Virus record (IMG/VR): IMGVR_UViG_3300010413_000016
Location: 10,770-74,769 of that record
Origin: a virus
Direction: 5' to 3' (one strand)
DNA: 64,000 nucleotides
Shown: positions 24,833 to 61,335 of the stretch, piece after piece
Position numbering within the stretch: the stretch's first letter is position 1
Layout of the letters: each line of letters begins with the position of its first letter
Notes under the pieces: model-generated
What the model saw: only the letters and a program-made list of their open reading frames with translations
Told to the model about the DNA's origin: nothing
The model's database searches: none
Program-made: the position numbers and the translations under genes

Positions 24833-25846
24833 ATGTTACGTAAAATTATTACTGTACTGTTGTTTGTAGTTGCAACAAACGTTTTTGCATCGCCGTTGTA
24901 TACTATCGGTGTCAAAGAAGCTAAACCCTTTTCATATAAAGAGAATGGCCAATGGAAAGGAATCAGCATTAATTTGATCAGACTGCTATCCGAGGACATG
25001 GGCTTCAGATATAAATTCGTGGAAGACAAAACAGTCGATCAGTTAATTGGTGATACGGAAAACCATGCAACTGACTTTTCTATAGCTGCGGTATCGACGA
25101 CAGCTGCCCGCGAAAAGGTTGTTGATTTTTCGCATCCTTATTTCTCCACATCAATGGGAATTCTGTCTTATGGGAAACCACCTTGGTATGAAACTGTCTG
25201 GTGGATCGCAAAACGGCTACTAATAACGTTGGTGATCTTTATCGTCGGACTGTACATTGTTGGAGCCTTGGCTGACAAAATTGATGGCGATGAGAATATA
25301 CGCAATCCGCACGAAGGTGCTTGGTGGGCATTGGTAACCTTTACTACGACAGGTTATGGTGACTACGTTCCAAAGACGGGCAAAGGAAAAATATTCGCAT
25401 CTATTTGGATGGTCGCTAGTCTGATATTGTTGTCAACATTTACAGGTTATTTGGCGTCAGCGATGACGATTAAACAAATGTCCACAGCGCCTATCACTCT
25501 TGGTAACCTTTATTCGTCTTCCGTTGTTACGGTTAAAGGTACCACTAGTCAACGATTGTTAGATAATCTTGGTATTAAGTATCATTCTGTGCAAACAGCA
25601 GATGAAGCTGTCGATTTGGTAATGAAACGACGGGTGAGAGCGTTTGCATATGATAGTGCGTTGCTCCAATATTATGCGAACACCAACGGTAATTTGTCGA
25701 TGGTAACCGTTGATGCGAATAATGAAAATTATGCTATCGTTTTTCCTCAAGGGTCACAGTTGACAGAACAGTTTAATGTCGGTATACTTAGGGTCATGAC
25801 GTCACCGAAGTGGAAAGATGTACGTCACGAATATTTTGTTCAATAA
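24833..25846 (+). CDS. GluR0-like ligand-gated potassium channel
   Basis: Signal peptide, SBP_bac_3 S1 (REKVVDFSHPYF), TM, pore helix with TTTGYGD filter, TM, S2 lobe. Confidence 0.9.
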   Translation: MLRKIITVLLFVVATNVFASPLYTIGVKEAKPFSYKENGQWKGISINLIRLLSEDMGFRYKFVEDKTVDQLIGDTENHATDFSIAAVSTTAAREKVVDFSHPYFSTSMGILSYGKPPWYETVWWIAKRLLITLVIFIVGLYIVGALADKIDGDENIRNPHEGAWWALVTFTTTGYGDYVPKTGKGKIFASIWMVASLILLSTFTGYLASAMTIKQMSTAPITLGNLYSSSVVTVKGTTSQRLLDNLGIKYHSVQTADEAVDLVMKRRVRAFAYDSALLQYYANTNGNLSMVTVDANNENYAIVFPQGSQLTEQFNVGILRVMTSPKWKDVRHEYFVQ

Positions 25847-43671: not shown

Positions 43672-44004
43672 ATGAGCGAGCAATACCTGGTAGTACAGTC
43701 CGAATTTGATTATGCAGATGAGTTTGATGTGTACGGACTCTTCATTACAACAAAATCGGACTTTGATAAGATGATGGAAGAAGCGAAGAAGTACTTCGAT
43801 GTGCATGGTGATTATGAAGGGTGGTTTGGTACGAATGAGGCTATACTCATTGAATCGTTTGAGGACTATCAGGCAGGTCTGCACGTATCAGAAATTACAG
43901 AAGAGACATACCACACATTAAACAAAGCGCTAAATCCGTATTATAAAGGTGAGAGTAAACCCTTCTCATGTGGACGTTTTTTCTTCATCGAATTGGACGA
44001 GTAA
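43672..44004 (+). CDS. hypothetical acidic protein
   Basis: DYADEFDV...FGTNE motif. Confidence 0.65.
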   Translation: MSEQYLVVQSEFDYADEFDVYGLFITTKSDFDKMMEEAKKYFDVHGDYEGWFGTNEAILIESFEDYQAGLHVSEITEETYHTLNKALNPYYKGESKPFSCGRFFFIELDE

Positions 44005-44022
44005 TCCCACACTGGAGCTGGT

Positions 44023-44520
44023 TCACTCGACATTATCGTGTATTAAGTGAACCAGCTCCACAAACTCTTTATAGCTCATATTCTGTTTCATTTTATTTAC
44101 TCTCCACTGACATAACACTACATTACCTTCAATATACCCCAAAGTGCTGTCAACGCGATCTAACGATAACGTCGTTGAGCTTTCGCCACATGTTGACATC
44201 GGTTCGCCAGTGTAAAAACACTTTCCGTCTTGAGCATCCCACATCTTTTCTATTTCTTCCAATGTTATGTTGAACTCAAGTCCTTTATATTTGGCTCGAT
44301 TCTTTGCAGAGACAAAACGATATTGAATTGGATTGTCCTTTACCCATTGGTTAAAATTCTTCTTTGCGTTAGTAATATACACTTGTTTATCTTCTTCAGA
44401 TAATTGATGATACCGAGCCCTTGATTTTTTCTTGAGACATTCTTTACACGTCGATTTGCGTACGCCATAGAATTTTGATGGATCAGTCTCGCCACACGTG
44501 TTACATAGATGATTAGCCAT
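44023..44520 (-). CDS. HNH / His-Me finger endonuclease with N-terminal zinc finger
   Basis: CxxC...CxxC; CFYTG...SLDRVDS..GY..GNVVLC...VNxMK. Confidence 0.8.
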   Translation of the reverse strand: MANHLCNTCGETDPSKFYGVRKSTCKECLKKKSRARYHQLSEEDKQVYITNAKKNFNQWVKDNPIQYRFVSAKNRAKYKGLEFNITLEEIEKMWDAQDGKCFYTGEPMSTCGESSTTLSLDRVDSTLGYIEGNVVLCQWRVNKMKQNMSYKEFVELVHLIHDNVE

Positions 44521-44880
44521 GGTTGGTTCCTTTTTGTATTATATAGGGAAACAAAAACTCATGGTTATTTTTGTGCCCTCCCATTTTCAGAACGATTTTT
44601 TTTTTTTAAAAATTTTTTCGCACCACGATTTTTCGATGGCGGGATATTTTCCGGGGGGGGGAGCAGAAACTCTAATCTAAGATCCATAATATTAACGGGA
44701 GAGATGATTGTAGAAAATGTATGGGAACGTGTGGCGGAAATTGGCGGGCGATGTTTTCAGGGTGAAAAATTTGGTATACGTTGAACCTAGCAAAGAAGGG
44801 TATAATCGCCCATCGGTGTTCTTAGGGACCTGGCCTCTCGATTTTACCAGATTCTATTTTCAAAGTCAACTGTTGACTTT
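44521..44880. other. non-coding strand-switch region with homopolymer tracts
   Basis: T12 at 44596-44607, G9 at 44653-44661, palindrome AAAGTCAAC-T-GTTGACTTT at 44862-44880. Confidence 0.7.
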
Positions 44881-45048
44881 TAGTTAGTGGGAGGAGCCGA
44901 GTCTCCTTCCACTCAGATCATAGCATTCATGTTGTCTTCTTCATCAAGATGGTGTACGACTTGCTACGTGACTTGTCTCCTCCCTATCAACTGTCGTGAT
45001 TAGATTGATTGAAAGATATATTATCTCTCACCCTAACTATGAAGTCAA

Positions 45049-45147
45049 CTAGTACCCCATACCGACTGCAGCCACAGATGCTGCCATCAAGGTGATGATG
45101 GGAGTAACGATAACAACTGCCACAATGATGATCACTTTCTGTTTCAT
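45049..45147 (-). CDS. 32-aa single-TM peptide (MKQKVIIIV...GMGY)
   Basis: Own promoter and SD; paralog at 53059-53157; below the ORF-track size cutoff. Confidence 0.7.
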   Translation of the reverse strand: MKQKVIIIVAVVIVTPIITLMAASVAAVGMGY

Positions 45148-45211
45148 CTCATCTCTCTTTTCTCTCAACTGTTGAAGCTATTATAGCTCCAACAGTTGAA
45201 GAAGTCAACTG

Positions 45212-45547
45212 TTATTTTAATTCATACTTGCTAAACATATTGACGTCAATATCAGATGACAGAATTTGTTCAACTTCTTGTTTGATCTTGTTCATTCGTT
45301 TTGTGACAATGTCAACACTCACAGAACGTGATTGATTGATATAGTAATCACTAGATTCAATATAGTTTAAATTGAATTGTTCTGTGAATTTGACGTCTGC
45401 ATCATGAAAGTCAGACACAGTTGAATCTTCGTTCATAACAAAGATAATGAAGTCGTCATCAACACTACTGATGATACAGTTGTCTATGTTTGTATCAACT
45501 TCATGTTCAATAAACAGATAATTGAACGATATGAATACTTTTTTCAT
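45212..45547 (-). CDS. early hypothetical protein
   Basis: Cassette ORF with own promoter; start corrected. Confidence 0.6.
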   Translation of the reverse strand: MKKVFISFNYLFIEHEVDTNIDNCIISSVDDDFIIFVMNEDSTVSDFHDADVKFTEQFNLNYIESSDYYINQSRSVSVDIVTKRMNKIKQEVEQILSSDIDVNMFSKYELK

Positions 45548-45649
45548 GTGATCTCTCAGTTCTCTCAACTCAGAGATACTATCTCATGATTCATGATTGA
45601 AGACAACAGATGGAGAGATTCAGATAATGAATCTCTCCATCAACTGAAC

Positions 45650-46141
45650 TTATTTGCTCAGTTTCTTTTTGATGTTGTAGTGATATGTAGATGCACCTGC
45701 TTGAGTCATGTCAAGTTCTGCCATGAAACGAGTGATAACATCTTTTCTTGCAGGATGTTGACCATCAACTATCATACTGATGTATATTTCTTCTGCAATT
45801 TGTGACTTTGATACTTTCTTTTCTTTTTGTACTTTGACCGTTTCTACTTTCGGCTTTGTATCTTTGATCTTACGAACTTTCTTCTGTTCAGTTATCTTTT
45901 CTTGTTGTGCAATAAATTCAACAATTTCCTTTTCAGTTTCAGTAACTGCATCTTCAACACTCAACATCTTACTGTCAACATGTGACATCATCCATTCTTG
46001 TTTGTATTCTTCTTTCCATTGTTTGAATGGAATATAATCTTCAGAAGGAAATGATGCGGCTGCTTTCTCTTCTTTATACAGAGTCAGAAGTGAAATGTTA
46101 TCCGGAAATTGTGATTCGATTTGATTGATTACGTGTTGCAT
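45650..46141 (-). CDS. early protein with C-terminal RKxxIxRF...AGASTY domain; paralog of 49152
   Basis: Sequence similarity within the window. Confidence 0.8.
   Translation of the reverse strand: MQHVINQIESQFPDNISLLTLYKEEKAAASFPSEDYIPFKQWKEEYKQEWMMSHVDSKMLSVEDAVTETEKEIVEFIAQQEKITEQKKVRKIKDTKPKVETVKVQKEKKVSKSQIAEEIYISMIVDGQHPARKDVITRFMAELDMTQAGASTYHYNIKKKLSK
45681..45778. repeat. 98-bp perfect repeat, identical to 50277-50374
   Basis: Identical DNA encoding SMIVDGQHPARKDVITRFMAELDMTQAGASTY. Confidence 0.95.
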
Positions 46142-46472
46142 GTTGTTTTCCTCTCTCAATTGTTGAATCTATTATCTGTCCAGTTGGTCACTTTGTCAAC
46201 ATGTTTCTGAAATTAATTTCAATCGATTCATGTTTGTGTGCCAATGAGGACACCATCTAATAAAGAGAGGCTGAGGGCAACAATTAATTTGAGCCGATAT
46301 TTGATCGGCTGATAAGGAGATGTGATTAGAGTTCCAACTTGATGGTTGGAGATGATGGGTGGATCAATTTGATCACTTCAGATCCACCCATCATATAATA
46401 GGTGGAGGCTACAAGTAGCCTCCTGAGTCGTCCGCCGGGAGAGATGAGAGAGAGGAGTGGCGGACGACTCTG

Positions 46473-46792
46473 TTAACTTGCTAACTTCACTGTTGCCATC
46501 CCAAGTCCGTAACCGAACGCGAATATTGCGATCGAGAGGCCGAGAACAGCTACCTTGGCGTTGTTACCAAGTGCCCCAAAGAATAGGACGATGAGACCTA
46601 GCACGAAGGCGACAACCCAGAGGATAACCGCCATAACTATCATCATGGTTTAGTCCTGCCGTTCCATACTTGTAGAGCAACTCCCGTGAAGAAGCCAGAC
46701 AAACAGACTAGAGTAGAGATGACATCGTTGGTGGCAATGTAGGCGCCCATTCCGATAATCACACCAAGTAATCCAAGTACAATTGCTTTCAT
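46473..46792 (-). CDS. two small membrane-protein genes (46643-46792, 46473-46643)
   Basis: Hydrophobic two-TM peptides of about 50 aa; coupled. Confidence 0.55.
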
Positions 46793-46851
46793 CCCATCAT
46801 TCCACTTTTGTCTCTCAACCGATGACAGTATCATCCCACTTTTATGTGGTG

Positions 46852-47402
46852 TCAAGCGGCCCTTTTCAGCTCAGGATGGTTAGTTGCCATCCAACGAACA
46901 AGGTCAGGAATGTTGTTGCTGAACTCTTCGAACGGAACGGTCGTGTGGCTGAAGATTAGACCACCGCTGAGGAAGTCAATGTCGATCGTATTGTTTGCGT
47001 AGTTGATACAAGCTTTGCAGATCGAGTGTGCCTTGTTACGATCAGCTACATGAATGTACGTGACCTTCGCTGCAGGATAGTTGTTCGCCAAGTAGTCGTA
47101 CATGTTGCCATTTGCTTCAACTTGCATGTTAGTGTCCTCTCAATTGTTAGAGGAATTATAGCTCAGCCACTCAAAAGAGTCAACAGCTATTTGGATATTG
47201 CCCACATCGACGTGAGCGCATACAATGACCACCCAAGCCCTTCGAAGAAGACAAACACAATCAGTGCTGATTTCAGTGGAATCAGCCACTTAACGTGATA
47301 GTCGCCATACGCTTCGATCTTGTTGTGATCTTCAAACAAAATGAATCTGGCATATTCTATCAAGATCAATATGATCAAGAACTCAAAATGGATGGCGTTC
47401 AT
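46852..47402 (-). CDS. two early hypothetical genes (46852-47127; 47187-47402, membrane)
   Basis: SD-led cassette ORFs. Confidence 0.6.
47139..47189 (-). repeat. 51-bp promoter repeat identical to 53499-53549
   Basis: ctcaattgttagaggaattatagctcagccactcaaaagagtcaacagcta. Confidence 0.9.
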
Positions 47403-47434
47403 GTTTTCTTCTCCTTATTGGAGGAGTTATTCTC

Positions 47435-47842
47435 CTACAACACACTTTCAGCATCAACAGCTGAAAGTGGAAAACTTCCGACATAACGAGCTCGATTTTT
47501 ACGGAAGACAGCTTGATATTTGCCAATGTTCACGTCTTCGTGAGCATCAATTTGGTACACTTTAACAGAAAAGTTACTTTCATCCATTGCTTGACGAACA
47601 CGTGATGATATTGTCCAGTCTTTAAGTTGTTGTTTGGAGCCAAATCCAAAGAACCAATTACGCCGATCATCATATTCGATGCTATCCCACATGAGGAAAT
47701 GGTCATCTTCTGGCACTGGGTGTTTTGGGTCGGCGATCGAAGATACATATTCAAGGTCACCAAATGATACTGACCGATTGGTGGAATTGCGGTTGTACAT
47801 TCCTGTACCCTTGGCATGTTCGACGCGTAGAACTGTAATCAT
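47435..47842 (-). CDS. early phage protein, possible ADP-ribosyltransferase-like fold
   Basis: LRVEH...HPxPxxD...FGFGS..QL..W...QAVF; start corrected. Confidence 0.5.
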   Translation of the reverse strand: MITVLRVEHAKGTGMYNRNSTNRSVSFGDLEYVSSIADPKHPVPEDDHFLMWDSIEYDDRRNWFFGFGSKQQLKDWTISSRVRQAMDESNFSVKVYQIDAHEDVNIGKYQAVFRKNRARYVGSFPLSAVDAESVL

Positions 47843-47905
47843 TTGTGATCTCCTCTCAATTGATGGGGCCATTATAGCCCCACCCTGAGTTGAAGTCAAC
47901 GGGAG

Positions 47906-48503
47906 TCACAGACGTTTCAGTTCAGACTCCAAACGATTTCGAAAATTCTTATATTGGTCGGTTTCGCTGTACTTCATGTAGAAGTCATGGTATGCCGGGC
48001 GAGGAGGTTGGGACAACAACTTCTCCCTGCCGATTGTGATGTCGAATTTCATCGTTTTCCACGAGCTTTGAAATTCATACGATACGCTACCAAACACCTC
48101 GATTCCTTTCAGAATCATAAGGGAGCCAGTGTTAGCCCAGTTGCGTTCTTGTTCGGACTCAAATCCACACTGGCTAATCAGGTCCATCAAATCTTTCAGG
48201 ATACGGGTTTGCATTGACATGGCGATCTCCTCTCATTTAATAGAGATATTATAGCTCCATCCTATGATGAAGTCAACTGATTTTGTAAATCAGCAGGTCA
48301 GATTCTTCCCCAGCCTCACAGGCAAAGATTTCATCTACTTGTCCGAAGGTTGAGTATTTGAGGTAGGCTTCTTGTTTTTCATGTGAGTCTTCAATCTCAT
48401 AAAAGATGAAGGCTGCTTGCTGATGGGTATCAGCCTCAATCACCCGGTGACTAGATTCGCGAGTGTCATAACGATCGAACCAAATTACTAAGAACTGTGC
48501 CAT
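47906..48503 (-). CDS. two early hypothetical genes (47906-48220, 48273-48503)
   Basis: Each has its own promoter and SD. Confidence 0.65.
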
Positions 48504-48572
48504 CTCTCTTCAATTCTCTCTTGTGTTAATTGATGAGACCAGCATAGCACATCCTCGTCTTAGAGTCAACGA

Positions 48573-49091
48573 TTATTTGAATTCAAACGGACCATTAAAC
48601 TTCTGCTTGTTGATAGTAACAGAAGTGATAGAAGAGATTTCGAAAGTTCGGATGATGACTTTGTTTTCCAGCCCACCCTGACTCGATTCTGGCTTACTTT
48701 CAGGAATACCTTCGATTTGATCTTTGGGAGTTACGACACCATCTACTTCGTAATGAGTAGTTCCCTTGTTGAGGAAGATGACTTCGAGGTAGTGTTTCTC
48801 TTTATATTCTACGAAAGGAATTCCTTCCAGCCGAGTTCCCCAAGTACGAGGACCAACAGTAAACGACTCAGGATCTTTACCTTCTTTACCGAGACGACGT
48901 TTCACCATCTCACCGTAGCCACTTTTCTCTTTGTTCTGAAAGACCATGACATTAGAGCCAACGGTTACCTTCCGAACGCGACCTTGCAGAAGATTATGAC
49001 GACCACCACGAAGCTTGACGTTAGTGGAAGTGTCAATGCTGATGAAAGTTGCGCCATTAACAGCATCCATGATTTTGCGGATATTGTTCAT
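48573..49091 (-). CDS. conserved early phage protein
   Basis: Promoter cassette; start corrected to MNNIRK. Confidence 0.75.
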   Translation of the reverse strand: MNNIRKIMDAVNGATFISIDTSTNVKLRGGRHNLLQGRVRKVTVGSNVMVFQNKEKSGYGEMVKRRLGKEGKDPESFTVGPRTWGTRLEGIPFVEYKEKHYLEVIFLNKGTTHYEVDGVVTPKDQIEGIPESKPESSQGGLENKVIIRTFEISSITSVTINKQKFNGPFEFK

Positions 49092-49098
49092 TCGTGAT

Positions 49099-49149
49099 CT
49101 CCTCTCAATTGATGGGGCCATTATAGCCCCATCCTGAGTTGAAGTCAAC
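49099..49149 (-). repeat. 51-bp promoter-hairpin-SD repeat, identical to 51745-51795; one mismatch to 47850-47900
   Basis: ctcctctcaattgatggggccattatagccccatcctgagttgaagtcaac. Confidence 0.95.
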
Positions 49150-49151
49150 CG

Positions 49152-49631
49152 TTAGCTGAGTTTCTTTTTGATATTGTATTGATAAGTAGAAGCACCAGCT
49201 ACTGACATGTTCAGTTCATTCATGAAACGTTGTACTACTTCCTTTCTTGCAGGATGGTTACCATTGACCATCATTTCCTGATAGACCTTCAAAGCACGTT
49301 CAGCTTTGGTTGGAACTTTCTCTTTCTTGACTTTGACCTTAGGAGTACTTTTGATCTTCCGTACAGTTACCTTTTTCTCAGGTTTTGCCTGTTGTTGCTT
49401 TTGATCGTTTTCCATTTCTTCTTCAGACAACTTGACAGCAGTCTCAGCATCAACCAATTTTGAAGTTGAGTGAGTCTCCAACCATTCTACTTTGTATGAC
49501 GCTCTCCAATCCTGAAAGGAAGGAAACGGATCTGAAGGAAAATCCATCTGCTCTTTCTCAATCTTGTATAGAGCAAGCAGGTTGATGTTGTTGGGGAATT
49601 TAGTTTCGATTGATTTGATTTGCTTCGCCAT
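49152..49631 (-). CDS. early protein with RKxxVxRF...AGASTY domain; paralog of 45650
   Basis: Sequence similarity; tandem promoters upstream. Confidence 0.8.
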   Translation of the reverse strand: MAKQIKSIETKFPNNINLLALYKIEKEQMDFPSDPFPSFQDWRASYKVEWLETHSTSKLVDAETAVKLSEEEMENDQKQQQAKPEKKVTVRKIKSTPKVKVKKEKVPTKAERALKVYQEMMVNGNHPARKEVVQRFMNELNMSVAGASTYQYNIKKKLS

Positions 49632-49789
49632 GCGAAATCCTCTCTCTCGTTTGTTAACTGTTGAAGCTATTATCTTCTAAGTTGGGTCTCATGTCGACAA
49701 ACTTTTCAATTTATTTTTCGTTGAAACACTTGCTGCATGTGATAGAGAGACTATCCAATAAGATGGGCCTGTTGTCAACAGGAACAGCG

Positions 49790-49833
49790 AAAAAAATGGG
49801 TGGCAGCAAAATGAGAGAGGAGCTGCCACCCAT
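49790..49833 (-). terminator. intrinsic terminator with CU-rich loop
   Basis: 12-bp stem, loop UCCUCUCUCAUUUU, U tail on the minus strand. Confidence 0.8.
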
Positions 49834-49924
49834 AAGGGCAAGTTATCCGCCCTCAACATGTATTAATAATGCAACCGACAAAGAGAGTCCACAGGTTATG
49901 GGTTGAAATGCTTTGTCGGTTGCC

Positions 49925-50185
49925 TTAAACTGGTTTCTTGGCGACCTGCTCCATTATATAATCGCGCAGATCGTCTTTCATTTCTTCTTCACAATCATTG
50001 AAGTCGAACTTTTCAGTTCCATCAATGTTTGCAGCAAAAACGTTTGCCACACGTTGTGAAGTTTCATCAGAGAACCATTTGACGTTCAGACCAAGCTCAT
50101 CAGCGAGTTCTTGACGTGTGTACGTTTGTTCTGCATTGCCGAACTGATCAGCAGGAACATGAAACTGCGCATTTGGATCTGACAT
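49925..50185 (-). CDS. early acidic hypothetical protein
   Basis: Own promoter and SD. Confidence 0.65.
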   Translation of the reverse strand: MSDPNAQFHVPADQFGNAEQTYTRQELADELGLNVKWFSDETSQRVANVFAANIDGTEKFDFNDCEEEMKDDLRDYIMEQVAKKPV

Positions 50186-50245
50186 CTAACTTCTCCTCTC
50201 ATTGGATGGAGCCATTATCGCTCCATCCTGAGTTGGTGTCAACAG

Positions 50246-50680
50246 TTATTCAGAACACTCTTTCTTGCAAGTATTTTGATATGTAGATGCACCTGCTTGA
50301 GTCATGTCAAGTTCTGCCATGAAACGAGTGATAACATCTTTTCTTGCAGGATGTTGACCATCAACTATCATACTTTGGTAGATGGCAACTGCTTTTTCCT
50401 TTTTACTTGTACCATCTGTTGACTTTGTATGAGGTTTACGTTTGGTAGAGGTAGAAGTTGTCACTTCTTTCTCTTTTTTAGGAAGTGCAATTCTCCATTC
50501 TTTTGGCTCAGGAATTTCTTTGAGTGTGCCATCATCATGAGGAATCTTTACAGTAGACCCATTAGGAGAAATCTCGATAATGGCATGCACTGCAGAGTAG
50601 TCAACTACTTTGCCATTATGAGTGAACTCACCATTCTCATCTTCACCCTTCCACTCAACAAACTGACCTTTCGTAAACAT
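50246..50680 (-). CDS. early protein: SH3-like N-terminus + AGASTY domain
   Basis: FTKGQFVEW...GKVV N-terminus; C-terminus identical in DNA to that of 45650. Confidence 0.75.
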   Translation of the reverse strand: MFTKGQFVEWKGEDENGEFTHNGKVVDYSAVHAIIEISPNGSTVKIPHDDGTLKEIPEPKEWRIALPKKEKEVTTSTSTKRKPHTKSTDGTSKKEKAVAIYQSMIVDGQHPARKDVITRFMAELDMTQAGASTYQNTCKKECSE

Positions 50681-50896
50681 TTTTGATTCTCCTCTCTCAA
50701 CTGATGAGTCCATTATAGATCCACCGGTTGAAGAAGTCAACACAAATCATGAAATTTTTCTGTTGTTCCCAACTTCAACTATGTTGAAGGTGTGTTGATG
50801 TGAGTGATCAGATCTCATAACTGAATACTATCTTCGTGATCAAATGTAGTGATAGAAGTGGATATATGCCACACTTCTAGCCTCTATTTTCTACCA

Positions 50897-51196
50897 TCAG
50901 TGGTGGAAATCATCATCAAAGAACGCGAACAGATACACCCCTTCTTCCTCGAGATTGTCAGAGTTAAATGCTAATCCCTTTTTGTGGTCACCTTTGTACT
51001 CAACGACAAAGTCTCCCAGCTCTGGATAGTCAACTTTGGGATGCCCAGCTTCTTGCATCAGTTCTACCAATTTGGCTGTGTCTCGTTCACTGATGCATGC
51101 ATCGCCTGTGGACAAACTGAATGCATCGATATCAATTACTTGAGTAACGATATCGAACATCTGTTGTGCCCACTCATTCAGAATCATGCCAGACAT
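50897..51196 (-). CDS. early acidic hypothetical protein
   Basis: Own promoter and SD. Confidence 0.6.
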   Translation of the reverse strand: MSGMILNEWAQQMFDIVTQVIDIDAFSLSTGDACISERDTAKLVELMQEAGHPKVDYPELGDFVVEYKGDHKKGLAFNSDNLEEEGVYLFAFFDDDFHH

Positions 51197-51289
51197 CTCA
51201 TATCTCCTTCCTCAACTGATGATGCTACTATCCCACATCATCACAAGAAGATCAACAACATCCCACTACCATCCCACTTTCGTGGAACA

Positions 51290-51435
51290 AAAAAAGAGGC
51301 CGACATGTGCCAGCCTCGAAAAGGAGGACGCTTGTGGTCCTCAGGGGGAAGAAGTGGTCGGCGGCCAAGAGAGAGGAGAGAGGGCGGCCGCCAACCGGGT
51401 AAACTTTCAAGCTACATCGTTCTCCTCAACCGATG
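51290..51435 (-). ncRNA. candidate small RNA cassette (promoter, SD-ATG-TAG, hairpins, terminator)
   Basis: TTGCAT-17-TATAGT at 51441-51469; start-stop at 51412-51417; CU-loop hairpin 51356-51396; terminator about 51290-51317. Confidence 0.6.
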
Positions 51436-51458
51436 ACTCTACTATACTTTATTCCGTG

Positions 51459-53045
51459 TTAGGATGCAACAGGCTCCACCATGAAAGTTGTCAGCCAGTC
51501 GCATACATCTTCGTGGGTGAGCAGCTCAATACCTTCCTCACCATCGCGAACGTACCAACTACATTCGTGGGCACATAGAGTGCTTGTTCCAACAATGTCA
51601 GTTACACTAAACTCGTTGGCTACCTCGATGAACTGAGGAATCGTCAGTGATGAGCCATCTGAGTCGTTGTAGGCAATATCGCCATCAAGAGTATACTTGT
51701 GTCCATTGCCGAGTGTCGCTGCTCCATAAATGTGCATTTGCTTTCTCCTCTCAATTGATGGGGCCATTATAGCCCCATCCTGAGTTGAAGTCAACGTTAC
51801 ATTGACCAATAGGTCTCTGAAGCAGGAGAGCATGAGTTAGGAGTGTTGATCGGTTCCTGATACTCTTTGCCGCTCATCAGGTTGGTGCGAGTAACCATCT
51901 TCTCGATGTTCTCAGCAAAGTCACGACTGTCAGCAATCGCGTAGTCGTCCTTCGTAGCACCATCGTGGAGCTTACCTTTGTTGTCAAGACGAGTCAGCGC
52001 CGCTTTGGCTGCACGCTCAGTCTTGTAGCTCTCAACCCAACATCCCCACGACTTGCTCGGCGCTTTGAGGATCAGGGTGGTTTCTTTGTGATAGATTACG
52101 TAGCTCATTTTGTTTCTCCTCTCTCAAGTGTTGAAGTAATTATAGCCCAACACCTGAGAGAAGTCAACGGTTAGAGTTTCAACTCTTCTTTCAGCGCATC
52201 ATAGATTGCCTGGCGAAATTCTCGAGTCTCTTCGGAGTACATGTCCTTGATATTCTCGTCGATCCAGTCGGCGATCTCTTCACCATCTTTGATGCCTCCA
52301 TCACTGGCAAGCCACTCGTACGGACTTTCGATTGGGTTCTCGTAGTGGGCCATCATCAGACAGGCAATGTGTTTGGCTGCCTTTGTCATTGTGTTCATTT
52401 ATATCTCCTCATTTGATGAGGAGCGTCGCTCCTCATCAAACTGTTGACAACGTTTACTTTTCGCTGTTTTCGAGATGCTCTTTGTAGTACTCGATGGCAG
52501 CTTCAACGCGATCGTCACCATCGATGCCGTAGATCTTGTAGTCGCCCATCGTGGTGGTGTTCTCATCATTGATATACTCGAACCCACCATAGTACTCGAG
52601 TGAGCGGATATTGTGTGCCTTGGTGATGATCAGCTCGTCATTAAGGTCAACGAACACGTGACCAGCACGTGAGTCAAGGCCGATCTTGTCAGCACGAACG
52701 TATGGAAGATCCTCAATGACGTTGCCAAGCATCTCGTTTGCTTCGTCGATTACGTTCAGTAGTTCCATTGCTTCTCTCCTTTCGTGATTGATGGGGCCAT
52801 TATAGCCCCATCCTGAATTGAAGTCAACGTTCGATGTACTCACCGTTGAGCCAAGCCTGCATTACCTCTACAGTTTGACGTACTTGATCTTCGGTCATTT
52901 GGATGGAAGCAGGAGAACGGTCTCCTGGTACGATACCTTGGTTCAGTTGAAGACAACGACCTGGTGTGATACCACGGAATGAAGTCAACATTACTTCTTG
53001 AACGTTTCCAGTTTCATCGATTGCTGATTTCAGATTGATGCTCAT
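51459..53045 (-). CDS. five early hypothetical genes (51459-51737, 51797-52108, 52171-52398, 52454-52768, 52824-53045)
   Basis: SD-led cassette ORFs; 51797 has a NLMSG...TP..CSPASETYWSM motif seen in T4-type phages. Confidence 0.7.
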
Positions 53046-53058
53046 GATGCATCCTCCC

Positions 53059-53157
53059 TTAGTACCCCATTCCAGTGGCAGTGAACAGGGCGAGTCCAGC
53101 CAGGATGGTCGGAGTGGTGACTACAACTGCTGCGATGATGATTACTTCCTCTTTCAT
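53059..53157 (-). CDS. 32-aa single-TM peptide (MKEEVIIIA...GMGY)
   Basis: Own promoter and GAGAGGAG SD; paralog of 45049. Confidence 0.7.
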   Translation of the reverse strand: MKEEVIIIAAVVVTTPTILAGLALFTATGMGY

Positions 53158-53207
53158 GATGATCTCCTCTCACTATGAGTACATTATTGCTCAACCACAC
53201 CAAGAAG

Positions 53208-55309
53208 TCAACAGTGGTTGGGATCTTGGCCTGAGAGAACACACATGGCAATTGCCGTTGTCTTATTAACGCGTTTGGCATACGATATGAGGTTCTCGAC
53301 AGGAATCGATTCCTCGATATCATCGCTAACCTGCTTGTGGCACATCCCTTCAAGGGAAAGGGAGATCGAGTTGCTGGTGTAGCCATTCTCATGGCAAACA
53401 GCTTTGTCATCACCATACGCCCACGCAACAGCAAGAACGTAGAAGGCAGCGAACATCAGAGTAATCGGTAACAGGTGCTTTTTCATTTCATCTTTCTCCT
53501 CAATTGTTAGAGGAATTATAGCTCAGCCACTCAAAAGAGTCAACAGCTAATTAATCTCAATGTCGAATTCGTGAGCTGCTGAACGGTAGAATGTGTACAC
53601 GTCGCTGGTGCCGACCCCCTCACCTTTAGGAAAGCTCTCAAGACTGCAACAGACTGAGTACATCCGAGTAGATACATCATCATTGTGGATGTCAAGACCA
53701 AGATGGGCAGCGCAGCGATGCATTACACTGAGAACCAGATCAGTCGTATTGAAAGCATTTGCGTTATACTTGCTCATTGTCTTCCCTCTCTCAGATGTCA
53801 GGGTAAGTATAGCTCATCCTTGAGCTAAAGTCAACTACACGTTGAAGTAGACTGCAGTGCGACGACCATTAATATCGACGTATGCATAATCGGCAGTTAC
53901 GTGCTCCCTTACATCTTCTTCGTTGTTCCAATCGATGTTGGCGTTGATCTTGTTGATAGCAAGCTTGACCGCACGGTCGTTGGTTGTCTCATACGCATCG
54001 TAACCAACGTCTTTGTTCGCCTGTTCGATGCCATAGTGGCTTGCAATATAGTAGTTACCTTGGCAACCACACATGCAGCCAACCTTGCCGTTGTATGACT
54101 GCTTGACGTCTTCAAATTTGATCATCTTGGTGCTCTCCTCTCAAATGGTGGCCCTATTATAGGCCACCATTCAGTTGAAGTCAACAGTTGCAAACAGATT
54201 CAGAACTTACTAAACTCATCCGAGTATCGTAAATCCTGGAACGTTGGAAGATTACTACCGTCCCGTCGTTCAAGGTATGCCGCATACTGGCCAGTCCGCT
54301 TTTCTTGGTGCCTTGCCTTGTGACTCTTATTGAGGTATCGTCCCCAGCCCCGTTTCCTGTCCGCTTCACGGACCTCACGAGTCTGTCCACATCCACAAGC
54401 ACACTTTATTGTCACCATCTTTGCCATCGTAGAGTCCTCACCCGTCAATCTCATCAATGTTCATATCGTTACCACTCCTGCTATGCGAAAGTGCCTAGCT
54501 CAACTTTCCAGTCTGTATGTGAAAATCCACTTGGGAAAATGCGTTCGATCTCTGCAGTAATCTCTTTTGCAGAACTACTAACGTTAATGTACATTCCATC
54601 TCCAGGGCGCCTTACTTCTTCTCCTCGCTGGAAGATTGGGGATTTGCGAACCTTCTCATTGCTCATCGGATTCTGACTGAACATGTATCCTGGAATAAAC
54701 ACTTTGAAGTTGGTAGCTCCTGTAGAAGTAAGAAACGATTTGCTCATCACATGTCTCTCTTTGTGTTAACTGCAATTCCACTATAATCCCATTATAGTCC
54801 CACTTTCGTTAGATGTCAACGTCACTTTACATCAGCTGGACGGAAAGAGAGGGTAGCAGACTGCTACCCTCTCTGGAAACGTGTCAATCTTTGTGTTTTA
54901 AAAAAGCCGTTAGTTGTGTCGTGTCTGTGGTTTGCGTTAAGTGTTACATGTCTACTCACCTCCTAAGAGTTATTTTATTAGGTTCGTTCGTGTGTAAACT
55001 TTGATAAGAATTCCATTCTCCATCAACGGGAGAGATGGGTCAACGTTCTCTCCTTGCGTCCTGATAACTCTGAAGAGTACGAAGACGGGAGAGTAGGGTG
55101 TTAGTAGTATTTCGGAACTGGATGCCAAGTTGTTCCATCATATGGACAGATCGCTCATAAAAGGTCAACAGGCTACGAAGCTCATCGTCGGAGATTGCGT
55201 CACCACGCAGGAAAGCTTCGTTTGCTTCTTTGTTGAGAGACGTCATAACCATCGTGGCATCCTTTGTAAGAATTAGGGATGTCTGATCGGCCCCACTCCA
55301 ATACGCCAT
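53208..55309 (-). CDS. six early hypothetical genes (53208-53486 exported, 53547-53777, 53835-54125, 54200-54427 Cys-rich, 54481-54750, 55040-55309)
   Basis: Cassette organisation; CMCGC and CACGC motifs in two of them. Confidence 0.6.
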
Positions 55310-55423
55310 CAGACTCTCTGAGCCGTTCTACTCAGCCTTACCTCTAGGGATAACTATCCCATACAACTCCTGGCAGATCAACGCAAAAGTTCCACCAATA
55401 GTGGAACTTTTGCCGGGCCAGGT

Positions 55424-55990
55424 TTACGCTTTGGCTTCGGTGGACTCAGTCTGCTCAGCTTTGGCAGCCTTCTCGGCCTCCTTGGCAGCTTTGGCTTCGG
55501 CACGTTCCTTCGCTTTCGCTTCCTTCTCGGCAGCTTTGGCAGCCTTCTCGGCCTCCTTGGCAGCCAGAGCTTCGGCCTTTTCGGTTTCGGCCTTGACCTT
55601 CGCTTCAACAGCGGCCTTTTCAGCGGCAACGATCGCTTTGGTGTCGATGGAGGAAGCTGCCTTGATCTTGCCGTTCAGACCGTCAACGTAGTTCTTGACG
55701 GCAACAGCCGGATCGGTGGCATCGTTCGGGCCAGGCTTCAGGACGTGGGAGGTAACAACGGACAACTCGTTGTCCTTGGTCTCCTTCACGGAGTAAACGG
55801 TGACCAGGTCGCCAGACTCTTTCATGGCGTTGCGGTGCTGTTGGTAGATGGTCATCGCGTAGGCGGAACCGATGTCGAACTTCTCCATCAGAGCGTTGGC
55901 GGCGTCTTTGCGGGAAACCTTACCGGCCATTTTGTCCAGTTCGGCAAAGGCTTGCTGACGTACGGATTGTTTGTCGGTGTTACGTGACAT
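55424..55990 (-). CDS. early protein: AGASTY-like N-domain + A/K/E-rich repeats
   Basis: RKDAANALMEKFDIGSAYAMTIY; AAKEAEKAAKA repeats; biased codon usage; tandem promoters. Confidence 0.8.
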   Translation of the reverse strand: MSRNTDKQSVRQQAFAELDKMAGKVSRKDAANALMEKFDIGSAYAMTIYQQHRNAMKESGDLVTVYSVKETKDNELSVVTSHVLKPGPNDATDPAVAVKNYVDGLNGKIKAASSIDTKAIVAAEKAAVEAKVKAETEKAEALAAKEAEKAAKAAEKEAKAKERAEAKAAKEAEKAAKAEQTESTEAKA

Positions 55991-56139
55991 ATTTTGTTAC
56001 TCCTGTTACAGTTTAAGTTTGGGGTTGTTTACAGGGCTTATTATGCCCGATCTTCGCTCCCAAGTCAACTCCCAATTCAATTCAACTTTGCTGGCGTTTC
56101 CTTAGGGTGAAAATACTTTAACTCAGATACTGACTGAAG

Positions 56140-56430
56140 TCAACATCTGAAATGATTTTTAATTGCCTCAGAAATCAGAGAGTTAGCGGAAGCTCCCAAT
56201 GATTCGATATAAGCGTTAACTGCCTTCGTTGAGTTGATCGGCAATACGCCCTCCATCAGGAATTCCACCGCGTGGGAACTGGTATAGTTGTGGTGGAGAT
56301 CGTCAGCCACCATTGTTGCGATGAATTTGAACGTAGCGTTCCGGACATCCTTGTAGCTGTCGCAACCTTCAACGTTGTCTGCGATCCACTGACTGATATC
56401 GTCGGCGTTGGCAAAGTTCTCATGTGACAT
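56140..56430 (-). CDS. early hypothetical protein
   Basis: Own promoter and SD; start corrected. Confidence 0.6.
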   Translation of the reverse strand: MSHENFANADDISQWIADNVEGCDSYKDVRNATFKFIATMVADDLHHNYTSSHAVEFLMEGVLPINSTKAVNAYIESLGASANSLISEAIKNHFRC

Positions 56431-56484
56431 AGTCTTCTCCTCAAATGACGTGACCACTATAGCTTACGCCATCATATGGGTCAA

Positions 56485-57273
56485 CTAGAGGCTAACGTGA
56501 AAGTTAACAGTAGCACCCTTGTCCTCGAGTGTGGGTTGGATTGTCATAAACCATTTTGACTCTGGTTCAAAGAATGTATCGTACATCACGAGTCCGATGA
56601 AATTCCCCAGCGCCGCTCCAGCAAACTGGTCACTGAAGTGGTGGAGGCCTGATTCAATTCTGCCGTATGATGAGACAGCTGCCAAGTAATATGATCCAGC
56701 AATTGTCGAGTACTTTGCAACATCATTCATGTTGCTGTACTCTAGATTTCGTCGGATGAGGGCAGCTCGAGTAAACGCTGGTGTGGAGTGTCCGGATGGG
56801 AACGCTTCATACTCAACGTGACGAATTGTTCGATCAGGCTCTCGTCGACGGATGGCAACCTTCAGCTCGTTTGTCACCCAGTTGGACGTGTCGATGATTA
56901 CAACTTCACCAAGTATGCCCTTAGCCTTCGACGATATGCTTCCATTTGTAATTAGTGTAGATGCTATCCACGCATCAGTCAGCACATTCAGAGCATTATC
57001 ACTTGTCATAGCAGCATCGTGCTTGCTGCCATACACCCAGTTGTCTCTGAGAGCCGCTTGCGTCCACTCTTCATCTTTACCGGATGCTAGTGCAACAGCT
57101 GCCCCTGCTGCTGGAATCCACGTTCCAGGATCTTTCAAAGCTCGAACAGACGCATGCTTGAACTTCTCCCACGTTGGTGTAAGGTGGATACTCCCTCCCC
57201 AGTTTGTTTTGTGAGGAGAGGAAGCACAGCCAGTTAGCAAAACAATGATACTGATCAAGATGACTCTTAGCAT
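56485..57273 (-). CDS. PAP2-family phosphatase lipoprotein
   Basis: Lipobox LLTGC; K...RREP, FPSGH and GRIxxGLHHFSD motifs. Confidence 0.85.
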   Translation of the reverse strand: MLRVILISIIVLLTGCASSPHKTNWGGSIHLTPTWEKFKHASVRALKDPGTWIPAAGAAVALASGKDEEWTQAALRDNWVYGSKHDAAMTSDNALNVLTDAWIASTLITNGSISSKAKGILGEVVIIDTSNWVTNELKVAIRRREPDRTIRHVEYEAFPSGHSTPAFTRAALIRRNLEYSNMNDVAKYSTIAGSYYLAAVSSYGRIESGLHHFSDQFAGAALGNFIGLVMYDTFFEPESKWFMTIQPTLEDKGATVNFHVSL

Positions 57274-57473
57274 ATGTACATCCCTGTCAGATGGAATTAA
57301 GCGTGTTTTGCTTGCTCAAGGAGCTCAAGTTGGCGATACAACTCATCAAGATCAAAATTAAGTTCTTCGATCTCACCTTCGTTGTTCTCACCAGCTTCAC
57401 TCCGTGCAAACGCATCCTCAAGAGCTTCCTCAGTCTGGCGAATTTTATCTCTTGTGATTTTCTCGCTGTCCAT

Positions 57474-58016
57474 TTACCACGCCCCTTTTGCAAAGTTCTT
57501 TTTACAGTTGGCAACATAAGTAGAAGCACCAGCTGGAGTCATACCAATCTCGTCAACAAAACGTTGAATGGCATCTTTGCGAGAAGGGAACTTTCCGTTG
57601 TTCTCATCGACCATCTTTTTATACAATTCGATGGCCATTTCCTTTTTGGCACCCTTCTTTTTCTTGGGATTACCAGCTGCATCCAACTTGACGGGTTTAT
57701 CCTCTCGACTTCCCAACATCCAGGGATTTTTCTTGAGGTGAGTGTTGGCCTTTTCGGTTGCCAGTTCGAAAAGCTCGTCCATGTCAACGGTACCATTTTT
57801 CAAGTTCTGACGAACAGTCTCTTGAACGAGATACAGATAGTGCCAACGGATCGTTTCGTCGGTAGCGTCAGTATCATGACCAGACAACTCTTTGATGCGA
57901 TCACGATACAGTTCAGGAAGAACTTCACCTTCCACCTCATTCAGGTACTTGACTGCAGCCGTGAAGCTGTGAGTAGGAATGTCGTAATTCTGTAGAGTTT
58001 CGATTGCCTGATTCAT
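57474..58016 (-). CDS. early protein with C-terminal AGASTY domain
   Basis: PSRKDAIQRFVDEIGMTPAGASTY; start corrected. Confidence 0.8.
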   Translation of the reverse strand: MNQAIETLQNYDIPTHSFTAAVKYLNEVEGEVLPELYRDRIKELSGHDTDATDETIRWHYLYLVQETVRQNLKNGTVDMDELFELATEKANTHLKKNPWMLGSREDKPVKLDAAGNPKKKKGAKKEMAIELYKKMVDENNGKFPSRKDAIQRFVDEIGMTPAGASTYVANCKKNFAKGAW

Positions 58017-58088
58017 GATCTGTCTCCTCTCAATTGTTGAAGCTATTATCGCTCCGTCTTGAGTTGAAGTCAACTTATTTCTCGAAAG

Positions 58089-60373
58089 TTACCGTAGTTC
58101 CTTAATCCTTGCAATCAACTTATTGAGATTGTCTGCTGTATCCTGATAGTAGACAACGCCAGTCAACTGATCGGGTGTAGTGGGATTATCGTAAAGAGCC
58201 TGACATAGCTGGAACCCAGTCTGAGACCCAACCTGAACGTGCAAATGAGACCCGAGAATTGTTATCTCGCCATCAGCCATATCATCCTCATACCCAGAGA
58301 TGACAGCAGGGATATGGTTGGTTGTCAGGATATCCAACATTTGTTGTTCGTTCATAATCTGTCTCCTCTCAACTGATGAGTCTAGTATAGCAGCATCGTT
58401 CAAAGATGTCGACAATTATTTTGTGAACACCTCAAGATCAATGTCGTCGTTGATGCTGAACTCAAACTCACCAACATGTTCACGACCCTGTTGAGTCATC
58501 ACCCACACCACCCCATTTTCACATAATATAATGTTCAGTACTGTTTCACCATTGTACTTAATATGGGCATTTTCGGCAGCATACGTGACAGAGTCCTCAT
58601 CATCATAATCTTTGACAAGGATCCCATCTTCGATCAGTTGTTGTAATTTACCCATTTTTGCCTCTCAACAGCAATCTCATTCAGTTGACGATGATACTTT
58701 GTAAGACGACTATACCCTTTATCGTCCTTCTTTGTCCACCTTTCAATCTGCCATGCAGCAAGATAGCCGTTCTTTTTCCAGAACTTGGCAGTGAGAGAAC
58801 CACTTCGAGCATCAGCTCCTGTAAAGCCGATGCCGTTGTGAACTTCAGTGGTGAGGTGGGTTTGTTCTTCGGCAGTCTGCCGTGCAAGAAGACTGGAGAG
58901 AGCACGACCAACAACAGCCTCCACGTACTTCGGATTCGGATTGTCCAGCATTTGCTGAAGTGAATCTTTGGTGACGATCTTTGCTTGTTTGGCCATGTCT
59001 CTCTCCTCTCAAGTGATGGGGCCATCATAGCCCCATCGTAAGTTAAGGTCAACTCATTCAACAGTCACATCGTAATCGAAGTCAGGATGGCGCGACAAAG
59101 AGTAGAACTTGAAATAATGCCCAAGCTCATGGCATTTGTGAAAGAGTAATCTCCAACACCATTCTCCGAGATCATCCGCCACTGGTTCTTCAATATTGAA
59201 CGAGCCGACGGTAATGAACTTCAGAGGAGGAACCGTTACAGCTGGGTCATATATCTGAACACGGCATTTCTTCGTGGTTGTTTCCATATAGCATCTCCTC
59301 TCAAATAATAGAGATATTATTGCACATCCATGTGTAAGAGTCAACTATAATTACGTCTAAATGCCCACCCTTTTCCACCCTGCCATGTACCAGCGTGAAC
59401 ACCATTCTTATAGTAGAGTGTCATTTTGACTGGAGCTCCATCACCGTACGCTTCTTCAGTATATGGGCACGCAGTGATACCTTCAGCACCAATAGATTCA
59501 ACAAGACGTTGTTCGAATGCGCCTTTAGTCATTCGTTGCGTAAATAGCAAATCTGACATAGTAGTTCTCCTCAATTGATGGGGCTATAATAGCCCCATCA
59601 AAAGAGAAAGTCAATGGAAATTACTCACCCATCGCCTGTTTCAGGAGATCGTCAATCTCCTTAGTTTTGTCGATATCAGGTCCTGTGCAGAGATACGGTT
59701 CCAGATGAGGGACAACCTTGACGATTGACTCTACCGTACGACAGGTACGGATAGTGTTGAACGTTTCATCTGCCAAACGAAATGCATCGTTGGTGATGTT
59801 GGTATCTGTTTGGTTCAACATCTTTTGGGTAGTACAGTCGGTTGGAATGTAAGCATCCAGGTCAACATGAAGGTAATCTTCCTGACCATCATCTTCACTC
59901 CAATCGCACGCAGATGTTTTATCTTCATCATCGGAGATGACGATTTGAACGAAAGGAAACGGAAGCTTGAAAGTGAAGTTGTCAACCTTCATCAGTTCGT
60001 CCCACATGCCCGCCAACTTCCGAATAACATGGGTCCTGATGTCGGTTTCGTCACCGAAGTAACCGAACTTCGGTTGAAAAAATCCAGGATCCTTCACACC
60101 TTCGACAGTTTTGAATTTTTTTGCACTCACGGTGTCATCACCGTGCCAACTCAGCTGCAAGGCCACACGGCGAATAGGACCATCAGCAGCCAAAAAAGAA
60201 TCGACCATCGCGCGACACTGATCGGAGTAGGTTTTATCAAACACCTCCCCCGCAACCTCGTTCCAATGAGAGATAACAGTTTCGTGGAGGTTGTTGAGGC
60301 GATTCTCTACCACGTCGGCAACAAAAGTGGCCACCGCATAACGCTTATCATTCATGTTAACAGTACTGGCCAT
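58089..60373 (-). CDS. six early hypothetical genes (58089-58355, 58416-58655, 58634-58996, 59054-59287, 59341-59559, 59621-60373)
   Basis: SD-led cassette ORFs, most with their own promoter. Confidence 0.65.
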
Positions 60374-60448
60374 GATATTTCTCTCCGTTGTTGTTTAAGG
60401 ACAGGTTCATTATAGTTTAGGACACAGTTGAAGACAACACCAGAAAAC

Positions 60449-60477
60449 AAAAAGCCCCTCACGAGGAGGGGCTTTTT
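60449..60477. terminator. bidirectional intrinsic terminator
   Basis: AAAAAGCCCCTC...GAGGGGCTTTTT. Confidence 0.85.
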
Positions 60478-60492
60478 GGAGTGGTTGCTGCC

Positions 60493-60744
60493 TTACTTGG
60501 AGGCAGTGGCAGGGTTGGCCTTCGGCGTGGGCATCTCCCAACCTTTCTTGCCAGAAACGATGTTCTGGTAATAGGTGGCAGCGCCGTTGCTAGTCAGACC
60601 CGTCTTCGCGACCATCTCGTCGATGATCTCTTTGCGAGTGGCCGGAGTCTTGCGACGAGTCATGCGGGCAACGATGCCGATGGCCTGCTTCTTGGCAGAG
60701 GTGGGCTTCTTGGTGCTGGTGGCCTTGGTGGTTTTGGTAGCCAT
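60493..60744 (-). CDS. small basic stand-alone AGASTY-domain protein with histone-like K/T/A N-tail
   Basis: PATRKEIIDEMVAKTGLTSNGAATYY; three stacked promoters upstream. Confidence 0.8.
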   Translation of the reverse strand: MATKTTKATSTKKPTSAKKQAIGIVARMTRRKTPATRKEIIDEMVAKTGLTSNGAATYYQNIVSGKKGWEMPTPKANPATASK

Positions 60745-60987
60745 GTTGTATCACTCCTATGTGATTGACGTTTTGTTTAACTTCAGGTTCATGTTAACCT
60801 AATTTCAAACTTCAGTCAACACGTTTTGTTAACTTTTTGTTCCAGGCTTAGGCTTGTCCTGTTACCGCTTAACTGAGACCCACTATACTAAATGTCTGCT
60901 TTGGGGTCAACACTTGTTTCAAACTTCCGTTGGCGTCTTGCTTAACCAATGACTCCACCTTATATTAAAAGGGGGATGAAGTCAACA

Positions 60988-61209
60988 CTACTCAGGATCT
61001 TTATCGTCGCGGCCGAGCAGTTCGTTGAGGCACTTGCGATAATGAGCGAGATCACCAACATCTGCCCAACTGATCGACTTGGGGGAATCCTCCAGACGAT
61101 GTTCACACAGACTAATCAACTCTGCAACATCGTTAAGTTGTTGACGGATAACGTTAAGATTCTTACGAGCGCGTTGTTGAGCGGTTTCGCGAAAAATTGT
61201 CTTAGCCAT
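60988..61209 (-). CDS. early hypothetical protein
   Basis: Last leftward cassette; start corrected. Confidence 0.65.
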   Translation of the reverse strand: MAKTIFRETAQQRARKNLNVIRQQLNDVAELISLCEHRLEDSPKSISWADVGDLAHYRKCLNELLGRDDKDPE

Positions 61210-61335
61210 GGTCGTTCTCCTCTGTAACTGAAGCACACAATAGATGAGTTGCAGCAAGAAGTCAACCACATTTTGACGTTGCCTTTTTAAATAAGATTCG
61301 CGACAATATGTTCTCCATTTGAGAGGAGATAAATC

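Follow-up and report, generated by a model that had tools for sequence, protein, structure and literature searches.

In T4-type phages, promoter-early stem-loop (PeSL) modules combine a sigma-70-like promoter with a stem-loop lying between its boxes or over the −10, carry a Shine-Dalgarno (SD) motif together with a start codon at their 3′ edge, flank ORFans and mediate shuffling (PMC2839356, PMC4122927). Open reading frames (ORFs) are gained and lost in PeSL arrays through recombination inside the promoter-to-SD interval (PMC4122927). Here we describe a cassette of this format on the minus strand of a 64,000-nucleotide (nt) stretch of viral DNA (positions 10,770 to 74,769 of the IMG/VR record IMGVR_UViG_3300010413_000016, hereafter the window), in which the cassette leader is retained, the reading frame is closed at once by a TAG following the ATG, and a stable hairpin, a small hairpin and a terminator come next. 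This start-stop unit appears to combine three known kinds of element, being at once a PeSL cassette, a start-stop and a regulatory RNA of the anti-SD type; it is real, non-coding and structured, and its function is one that we infer.

The two other kinds of element have been described in bacteria. In Staphylococcus aureus, an anti-SD motif in the 3′ untranslated region of icaR pairs with the SD, in cis or in trans, so that initiation is blocked and the message decays through RNase III (PMC3868564). In Bacillus subtilis, 8-mers resembling the anti-SD (aSD-like) repress a ribosome-binding site from hundreds of nt downstream, and genes are depleted of them (PMC12697547). In Bacillota and actinobacteria, small RNAs (sRNAs) such as RNAIII, RsaE/RoxS and 6C use C-rich loops to target SD regions (PMC2837412, PMC6486639). 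Start-stops, for some of which Meydan et al. (2019) proposed that a stop placed right after an unwanted start limits harm (bioRxiv 10.1101/520783), have also been reported for Campylobacter (PMC11955535).

Our preferred reading, to which we give a probability of about one half, is that the unit is an ORF-less cassette that would act as the non-coding 3′-terminal module of an early transcription unit, the loop of its first hairpin damping translation from early leaders.

An ORF-less cassette in an array of early genes

The window is part of a 74.8-kb record with an estimated completeness of ~23% (CheckV) that encodes rIIA, rIIB and tail-fibre-like proteins. Since both rIIA and rIIB are present and the closest rIIA among 50,697 phage records, from Vibrio schizo-T4 phages, is only ~31% identical, the source phage is, by its gene content, a novel T4-like myovirus. 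On the minus strand, from ~44,000 to 61,300, ~30 small early units form an array of ~17 kb, with a unit format of TTGACT-N17-TATAAT, an inverted repeat around the −10, TTGAGAGGAG and ATG. Judged by its layout, the array is a match to the published PeSL cassettes, and the cassette format is thus already known: strong sigma-70-like promoters have a stem-loop over or beside the −10 followed by SD and ATG, and small ORFans lie next to the modules, in a variable part of a genome that has rIIA and rIIB. The features of the start-stop unit are the following.

51464–51469, minus strand: candidate −35 box TTGCAT, overlapping the stop codon region of the upstream gene
51441–51446, minus strand: candidate −10 box TATAGT, after a 17-nt spacer
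51422–51436, minus strand: cassette (PeSL-type) leader TCATCGGTTGAGGAG, including the SD GAGGAG (51427–51422)
51412–51417, minus strand: start-stop, ATG at 51417–15 and TAG at 51414–12, 21 nt upstream of hairpin 1
51356–51396, minus strand: hairpin 1 (also hairpin C), stem of 12 bp, 9 of them G-C, and all-pyrimidine loop of 17 nt at 51384–51368
51324–51342, minus strand: hairpin 2, GAGGAC, 7-nt loop, GUCCUC
51289–51317, minus strand: intrinsic terminator, 9-bp stem (51317–51296) with 6 G-C pairs, 4-nt loop and U7; −14.6 kcal/mol

An initial annotation, made from the letters alone, had read this stretch as a promoter, an SD and an ATG-TAG followed by a structured RNA. The minus-strand letters bear out every coordinate that it gave, and folding and terminator scans confirmed that an anti-SD hairpin, a second short hairpin and a U-tailed terminator follow. 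Its view that the stretch after ATG-TAG is a non-coding structured RNA in cassette format was upheld as well, by the purine fraction, the codon score and the lack of homologues given below.

The unit shares with PeSL cassettes the leader with SD and start codon at the 3′ edge (TCATCGGTTGAGGAG-aacg-ATG) and differs from them in having no ORF and a weak promoter. It also contains no stem of at least 9 bp between 51469 and 51430, whereas the neighbouring cassettes have one. An ORF-less cassette, a start-stop and an anti-leader loop are all absent from the PeSL papers (PMC2839356, PMC4122927). The transcribed strand of the array has 48 SD-ATG pairs, and the cassette-type leaders (TTGAG(AG)GAG) among them open ORFs of 72–250 codons; the only ones without an ORF are the start-stop unit and a trivial case overlapping the true start at 53486. 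The 12-mer TCATCGGTTGAG of the start-stop leader has an exact copy elsewhere only in the unit at 46825–46814. As in bacterial start-stops, an SD-like sequence (GAGGAG) is followed, here after 4 nt, by a start codon and an immediate stop; this spacing, counted from GGAG, is smaller than in any other cassette leader, 6–9 nt being usual. The known sites differ in lying out of frame inside genes, whereas this one, known from sequence alone, is the sole "ORF" of a non-coding phage cassette.

The 122 nt following the TAG do not resemble the coding sequence of the array. Their GC content is 0.59 compared to 0.46 for coding windows, and their purine fraction is 0.33, against a minimum of 0.417 in the coding windows (120 nt) of the array. 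The in-frame codon score (−0.217) lies below 226 of 226 real in-frame windows, and the score of the +1 frame is in the bottom 5% of real windows. Two frames are nonetheless open after ATG-TAG, for 56 codons in frame past the TAG and for 52 codons in +1, and both run past the terminator (to 51243 and 51252), so that on a terminated RNA neither would have a stop codon. Neither frame had a match in Pfam or PHROGs; for the +1 ORF no homologue exists, and no gene calling had picked it up. The in-frame peptide had a single match among 1.84 billion representatives, an 871-aa repeat protein, which we rejected as a repeat-inflated chance match because a weak similarity of 29 residues, counted in four copies, makes up its score and because the matched part of the query is translated from hairpin 2, the terminator and the promoter that follows. 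TAG, at which 19 long ORFs of the window terminate, is an ordinary stop in this genome; recoding it gave no coherent gain, and the record contains no tRNA genes.

The fold of the 152-nt RNA was more stable than that of 200 out of 200 dinucleotide shuffles (z = −3.1), and its terminator is one of three good ones on the transcribed strand in 17 kb. The 3′ arm of hairpin 2 runs on as CCUCCUUUU, a second anti-SD-like tract. No Rfam family matched in the window at gathering thresholds, the best local score being 14.5 bits compared to a threshold of 41 (suhB/mmgR, E = 5.3). In the predicted equilibrium fold the SD of the unit itself is paired (P unpaired 0.05). We considered specific self-masking of this SD by the second anti-SD tract and rejected it as not distinctive: real genes overlap in this respect, and 19% of shuffled 3′ segments mask the SD too. 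For this reason, no ribosome-sensing switch is claimed.

Pyrimidine loops complementary to the early leaders

The loop of hairpin 1, CCCUCUCUCCUCUCUCU, is predicted to be fully unpaired in the ensemble (P = 1.00) and is complementary over 9–12 nt to the leader shared by the early cassettes (UUGAGAGGAGA). Against 30 real leaders, it gave a mean duplex energy of −15.1 kcal/mol, compared to −4.3 kcal/mol against internal coding segments. The best duplex, of 12 bp with the leader at 58996, reached −24.4 kcal/mol. The other large loops of the array gave −1 to −8 kcal/mol with the leaders, and none of 200 shuffled versions of loop 1 paired as well as loop 1 itself.

Two more hairpins of the same build were confirmed in the array. 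The transcribed strand carries three copies of the 8-mer CTCCTCTC, the exact complement of the SD core (0.19 expected; 0 of 500 dinucleotide shuffles reach 3), and all three lie in the loops of hairpin 1 (here hairpin C) and of hairpins A and B; for three random sites, the chance of all falling in large-hairpin loops is ~4×10−7.

46425–46470, minus strand: hairpin A, 12-bp stem and 22-nt pyrimidine loop, starting 4 nt downstream of the stop of two genes for small membrane proteins
49796–49833, minus strand: hairpin B, 12-bp stem and loop UCCUCUCUCAUUUU, followed by U6 (terminator)

The stems of the three hairpins, 12 bp each, are unrelated in sequence and exceed all others of the array in their number of G-C pairs; pyrimidines make up at least 90% of each loop, and each hairpin stands directly behind a gene or at a terminator. 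No other hairpin of this build was found in the whole record. Because their match to the phage leader exceeds the part that pairs with 16S rRNA, we call the loops anti-leader sequences and regard them as something other than simple copies of the anti-SD of the ribosome. They could not be aligned as one family; when the three non-coding gaps were compared, the downstream promoter module and the stem of hairpin B were all that they had in common.

Compared to icaR and to the B. subtilis 8-mers, the unit likewise has a pyrimidine tract at the 3′ end of a message that is complementary to a ribosome-binding region. Here, however, the tract sits in a large hairpin loop, its match of 9–12 nt is to the leader of ~30 phage genes and extends past the 16S-complementary core, and its effect is a predicted one. 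With the C-rich-loop sRNAs it shares an unpaired C/U-rich apical loop on a GC stem, a terminator after it and a predicted seed against SD regions. It differs from them in being phage-encoded, with no sequence relationship or Rfam match, in having a 17-nt CU repeat rather than a UCCC motif, and in carrying an SD-led start-stop at its 5′ end.

As a comparator, the same scripts were run on 100 kb of RB49, the phage where PeSLs were defined. These 100 kb contained no GC-rich hairpin with a large pyrimidine loop and almost no anti-leader 8-mers on the transcribed strand, and their SD-ATG-stop sites fell only inside annotated genes or at the junctions of such genes. Since RB49 lacks these features over 100 kb, anti-leader hairpins and start-stops in gaps are apparently not a general property of PeSL arrays.

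Several further observations concern the gaps and stems of the array. Two small hydrophobic ORFs in tandem (46473–46855, minus strand; ~49 and ~57 aa), each with predicted membrane helices, separate hairpin A from a promoter at 46855. The stem of hairpin B (AUGGGUGG...CCACCCAU) recurs at 46394–46352, in the gap of hairpin A, with a different loop that is not pyrimidine-rich, and the two gaps with this stem (46352–46394 and 49796–49833) both precede paralogous genes with tandem GATAAT-type promoters. At 52411–52441 (minus strand), a perfect 14-bp palindrome occupies a gene junction without a promoter. Its 5′ arm is leader-like (UGAUGAGGAGC), and its 3′ arm, the mirror image, runs directly into the real SD of the 52398 gene; the palindrome looks like an inverted duplication of a leader piece. 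At 52118–52163 (minus strand), the leader with the SD (UUGAGAGAGG) can form 18 bp with the spacer of promoter 52167. By this fold, read-through transcripts alone would have a masked SD, whereas those starting at promoter 52167 would leave it free, an arrangement described for some T4 genes.

Origin and possible role of the RNA

The initial annotation proposed a dedicated ~145-nt sRNA gene with its own promoter. Scored with a weight matrix built from 24 promoters of the array itself, the promoter of the start-stop cassette reached 6.2 bits compared to 12–20 for the real promoters of the array. This is background level: within these 17 kb the non-transcribed strand has 5 sites that score at least as high, the late region has 45, and the promoter was not among the 60 sites listed by a generic sigma-70 scan. 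It is plausible, with TTG kept, the optimal 17-nt spacing and TATAGT, but weak and, by its score, indistinguishable from chance. A dedicated gene with a promoter of its own is not supported, and the RNA may be mainly the 3′ end of upstream transcripts. Two ORFan genes flank the unit.

51459–51737, minus strand: upstream ORFan gene, 92 aa, with a strong PeSL promoter at 51794
50897–51196, minus strand: downstream ORFan gene, 99 aa, served by a weak GATAGT-type promoter of its own near 51255

Transcripts of the upstream gene would end in the start-stop unit. In the reading that we prefer, the RNA would be made as the last ~170 nt of transcripts from the upstream cassettes (from the strong promoter at 51794 and from further upstream), and perhaps also as a ~145-nt RNA from the weak promoter of the unit. 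Its hairpins would protect this terminal RNA, allowing it to outlast the messages, and the exposed loop 1 would pair with the leader and SD (UUGAGAGGAGA) of early mRNAs, in cis or in trans, and lower their translation. The ATG-TAG would be chiefly a safety stop for a ribosome site that came with the leader: without the TAG, translation from this ATG would unfold hairpins and terminator alike and, on a terminated RNA, take the ribosome to the 3′ end without meeting a stop codon. We propose a safety stop because the other two frames stay open for 52–56 codons, through the hairpins and past the terminator. This explanation seems to fit at least as well as ribosome loading and is simpler. A protective or gating ribosome on the ATG is possible.

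If the loop does pair with the shared leader, a few short RNAs at the ends of transcription units would control a whole class of early genes, which would add a new layer atop PeSL shuffling and provide a natural example of the long-range anti-SD repression measured in B. subtilis. If the loop has no such role, the unit would be an ordinary scar of cassette shuffling. The unit would also make a very clean natural test case for start-stops, in which effects of the start codon on RNA stability, folding or termination could be followed with ATG-TAG as the only frame and no protein product interfering.

Several points weigh against our preferred reading. Shuffled pyrimidine loops still give ~−10.7 kcal/mol with the purine-rich leaders, so the pairing of loop and leader is partly due to composition alone, and the edge of loops A and B over their shuffles is modest (9 of 200 and 20 of 200, respectively). 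Three anti-leader loops face ~30 leaders, and an effect in trans needs the RNA to accumulate. The loops could mirror the leaders by descent, through inverted duplication as at 52441–52411, without a selected function. Finally, no relative was found in the collections searched that could lend support from conservation or covariation. Searching 1.4 kb by blastn against the 50,697 phage records returned no relative, nor did searches of IMG/VR with the flanking proteins and rIIA; the sole IMG/VR locus returned, L002, was an unrelated high-GC contig and was rejected. Three DNA patterns describing the element and the PeSL module had no match in viral contigs and metagenomes, and a fourth, in which the TAG position was left free so that an intact-ORF version would match, had none in metagenomes. 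Both flanking proteins gave only self-matches among 5.8 billion proteins. A 1,429-bp Logan contig encodes the upstream protein. Within these collections, the uncultured phage thus appears as a singleton.

Rather doubtful, in our estimation, but live, is the alternative that the unit is evolutionary debris, in which the ORF would have been lost by deletion or PeSL recombination, leaving a leader stump and an ordinary 3′ end, and the loops would mirror leaders through inverted duplication and play no role. Gain and loss of ORFs by recombination in the promoter-to-SD interval is known in PeSL arrays, and the leader box TCATCGGTTGAG recurs exactly only in the unit at 46855 (leader, two small ORFs, hairpin A), which looks like an ORF-containing version; the start-stop unit may be its ORF-deleted paralogue. 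Leader/anti-leader palindromes elsewhere in the array (52441–52411 and 54874–54846) and the reuse of the hairpin B stem at 46394–46352 with another loop, a sign of module reshuffling, are also in keeping with such an origin and show that pieces of this kind undergo duplication and inversion in the region. However, three hairpins with unrelated stems have all kept a 12-bp GC-rich stem and an exposed loop of at least 90% pyrimidine, and aSD-like words are otherwise absent from the transcribed strand. As such words repress and are selected against (PMC12697547), exposed copies are unlikely to be neutral.

It is unlikely, in our view, that the unit is instead a dedicated sRNA gene of ~145 nt with its own promoter, in which SD and ATG-TAG form a selected ribosome-docking site that protects the 5′ end or ties up ribosomes. 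Parallels can be named in STAB-SD and in the protection by initiating ribosomes in Bacillus, and E. coli start-stops do bind ribosomes (bioRxiv 10.1101/520783). The optimal 17-nt spacing of the −35 and −10 boxes and the full cassette leader argue for such a gene, and since the P-site codon lies 21 nt before hairpin 1, a docked ribosome would not melt the hairpin. Further support comes from a second SD-led start-stop in another gap of the array.

54944–54964, minus strand: second, unrelated start-stop, perfect SD AGGAGGTG, 7 nt, ATG-TAA (54949), in a non-coding gap of the same array

SD-led start-stops are ~25 times denser in the non-coding gaps of the array than elsewhere in the record, and the second one makes chance a less likely explanation, although marginally so: with ~7 SD-ATG sites in the non-coding gaps, two start-stops are only marginally more than chance would give. 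Against a dedicated gene stands the background-level promoter. The 4-nt SD-ATG spacing, which no other cassette leader undercuts or equals, counts weakly against a site tuned for loading. The pairing of the SD in the predicted fold (P unpaired 0.05) also speaks against this reading, though the controls show that it is not distinctive.

A class-wide switch is a bolder proposal, and one that we find improbable. The RNAs of hairpins A, B and C would accumulate, pair with the ~30 early leaders and stop early translation, as an RNA counterpart of T4 RegB, and the start-stop would be a ribosome-operated gate; the docked ribosome would keep the SD of the RNA itself off the anti-leader tracts and protect its 5′ end. 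Far less probable still, and already largely refuted, is that the unit codes for a protein after all, whether through a recent nonsense mutation at codon 2, a TAG read as an amino acid or a 52-aa protein starting at TTG 51410 in the +1 frame: the two open frames and the position of this TTG 11 nt after the SD speak for it, but the in-frame codon score and the purine fraction lie outside the coding range, the +1 frame scores in the bottom 5%, the only database match is repeat-inflated, TAG is an ordinary stop in a record without tRNA genes, and both frames continue beyond the terminator.

Other features of the array and of the window

The second start-stop belongs to a second ORF-less unit at 54944–55043 (minus strand) with a moderate promoter, TTGACC-17-GAGAAT (11 bits). 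It is followed by an A/C-rich stretch and then by a 13-bp palindrome (54874–54846) that pairs AGAGAGGG with CCCUCUCU.

Outside the array, the window contains a gene on the plus strand (24833–25846) whose domains (SBP_bac_3, Lig_chan-Glu_bd, Ion_trans_2 and Lig_chan) are those of a prokaryotic ligand-gated potassium channel of the glutamate-receptor type, which is unusual for a T4-like phage to carry. Within a 462-aa ORF with zinc-finger-like and phosphoribosyltransferase domains, 80 nt are perfectly repeated in direct orientation (22133–22212 and 22337–22416, at a spacing of 204 nt). Within a tail-fibre-like gene, a 123-nt unit is present three times in tandem at 1762–2170, the copies sharing 79–100% identity.

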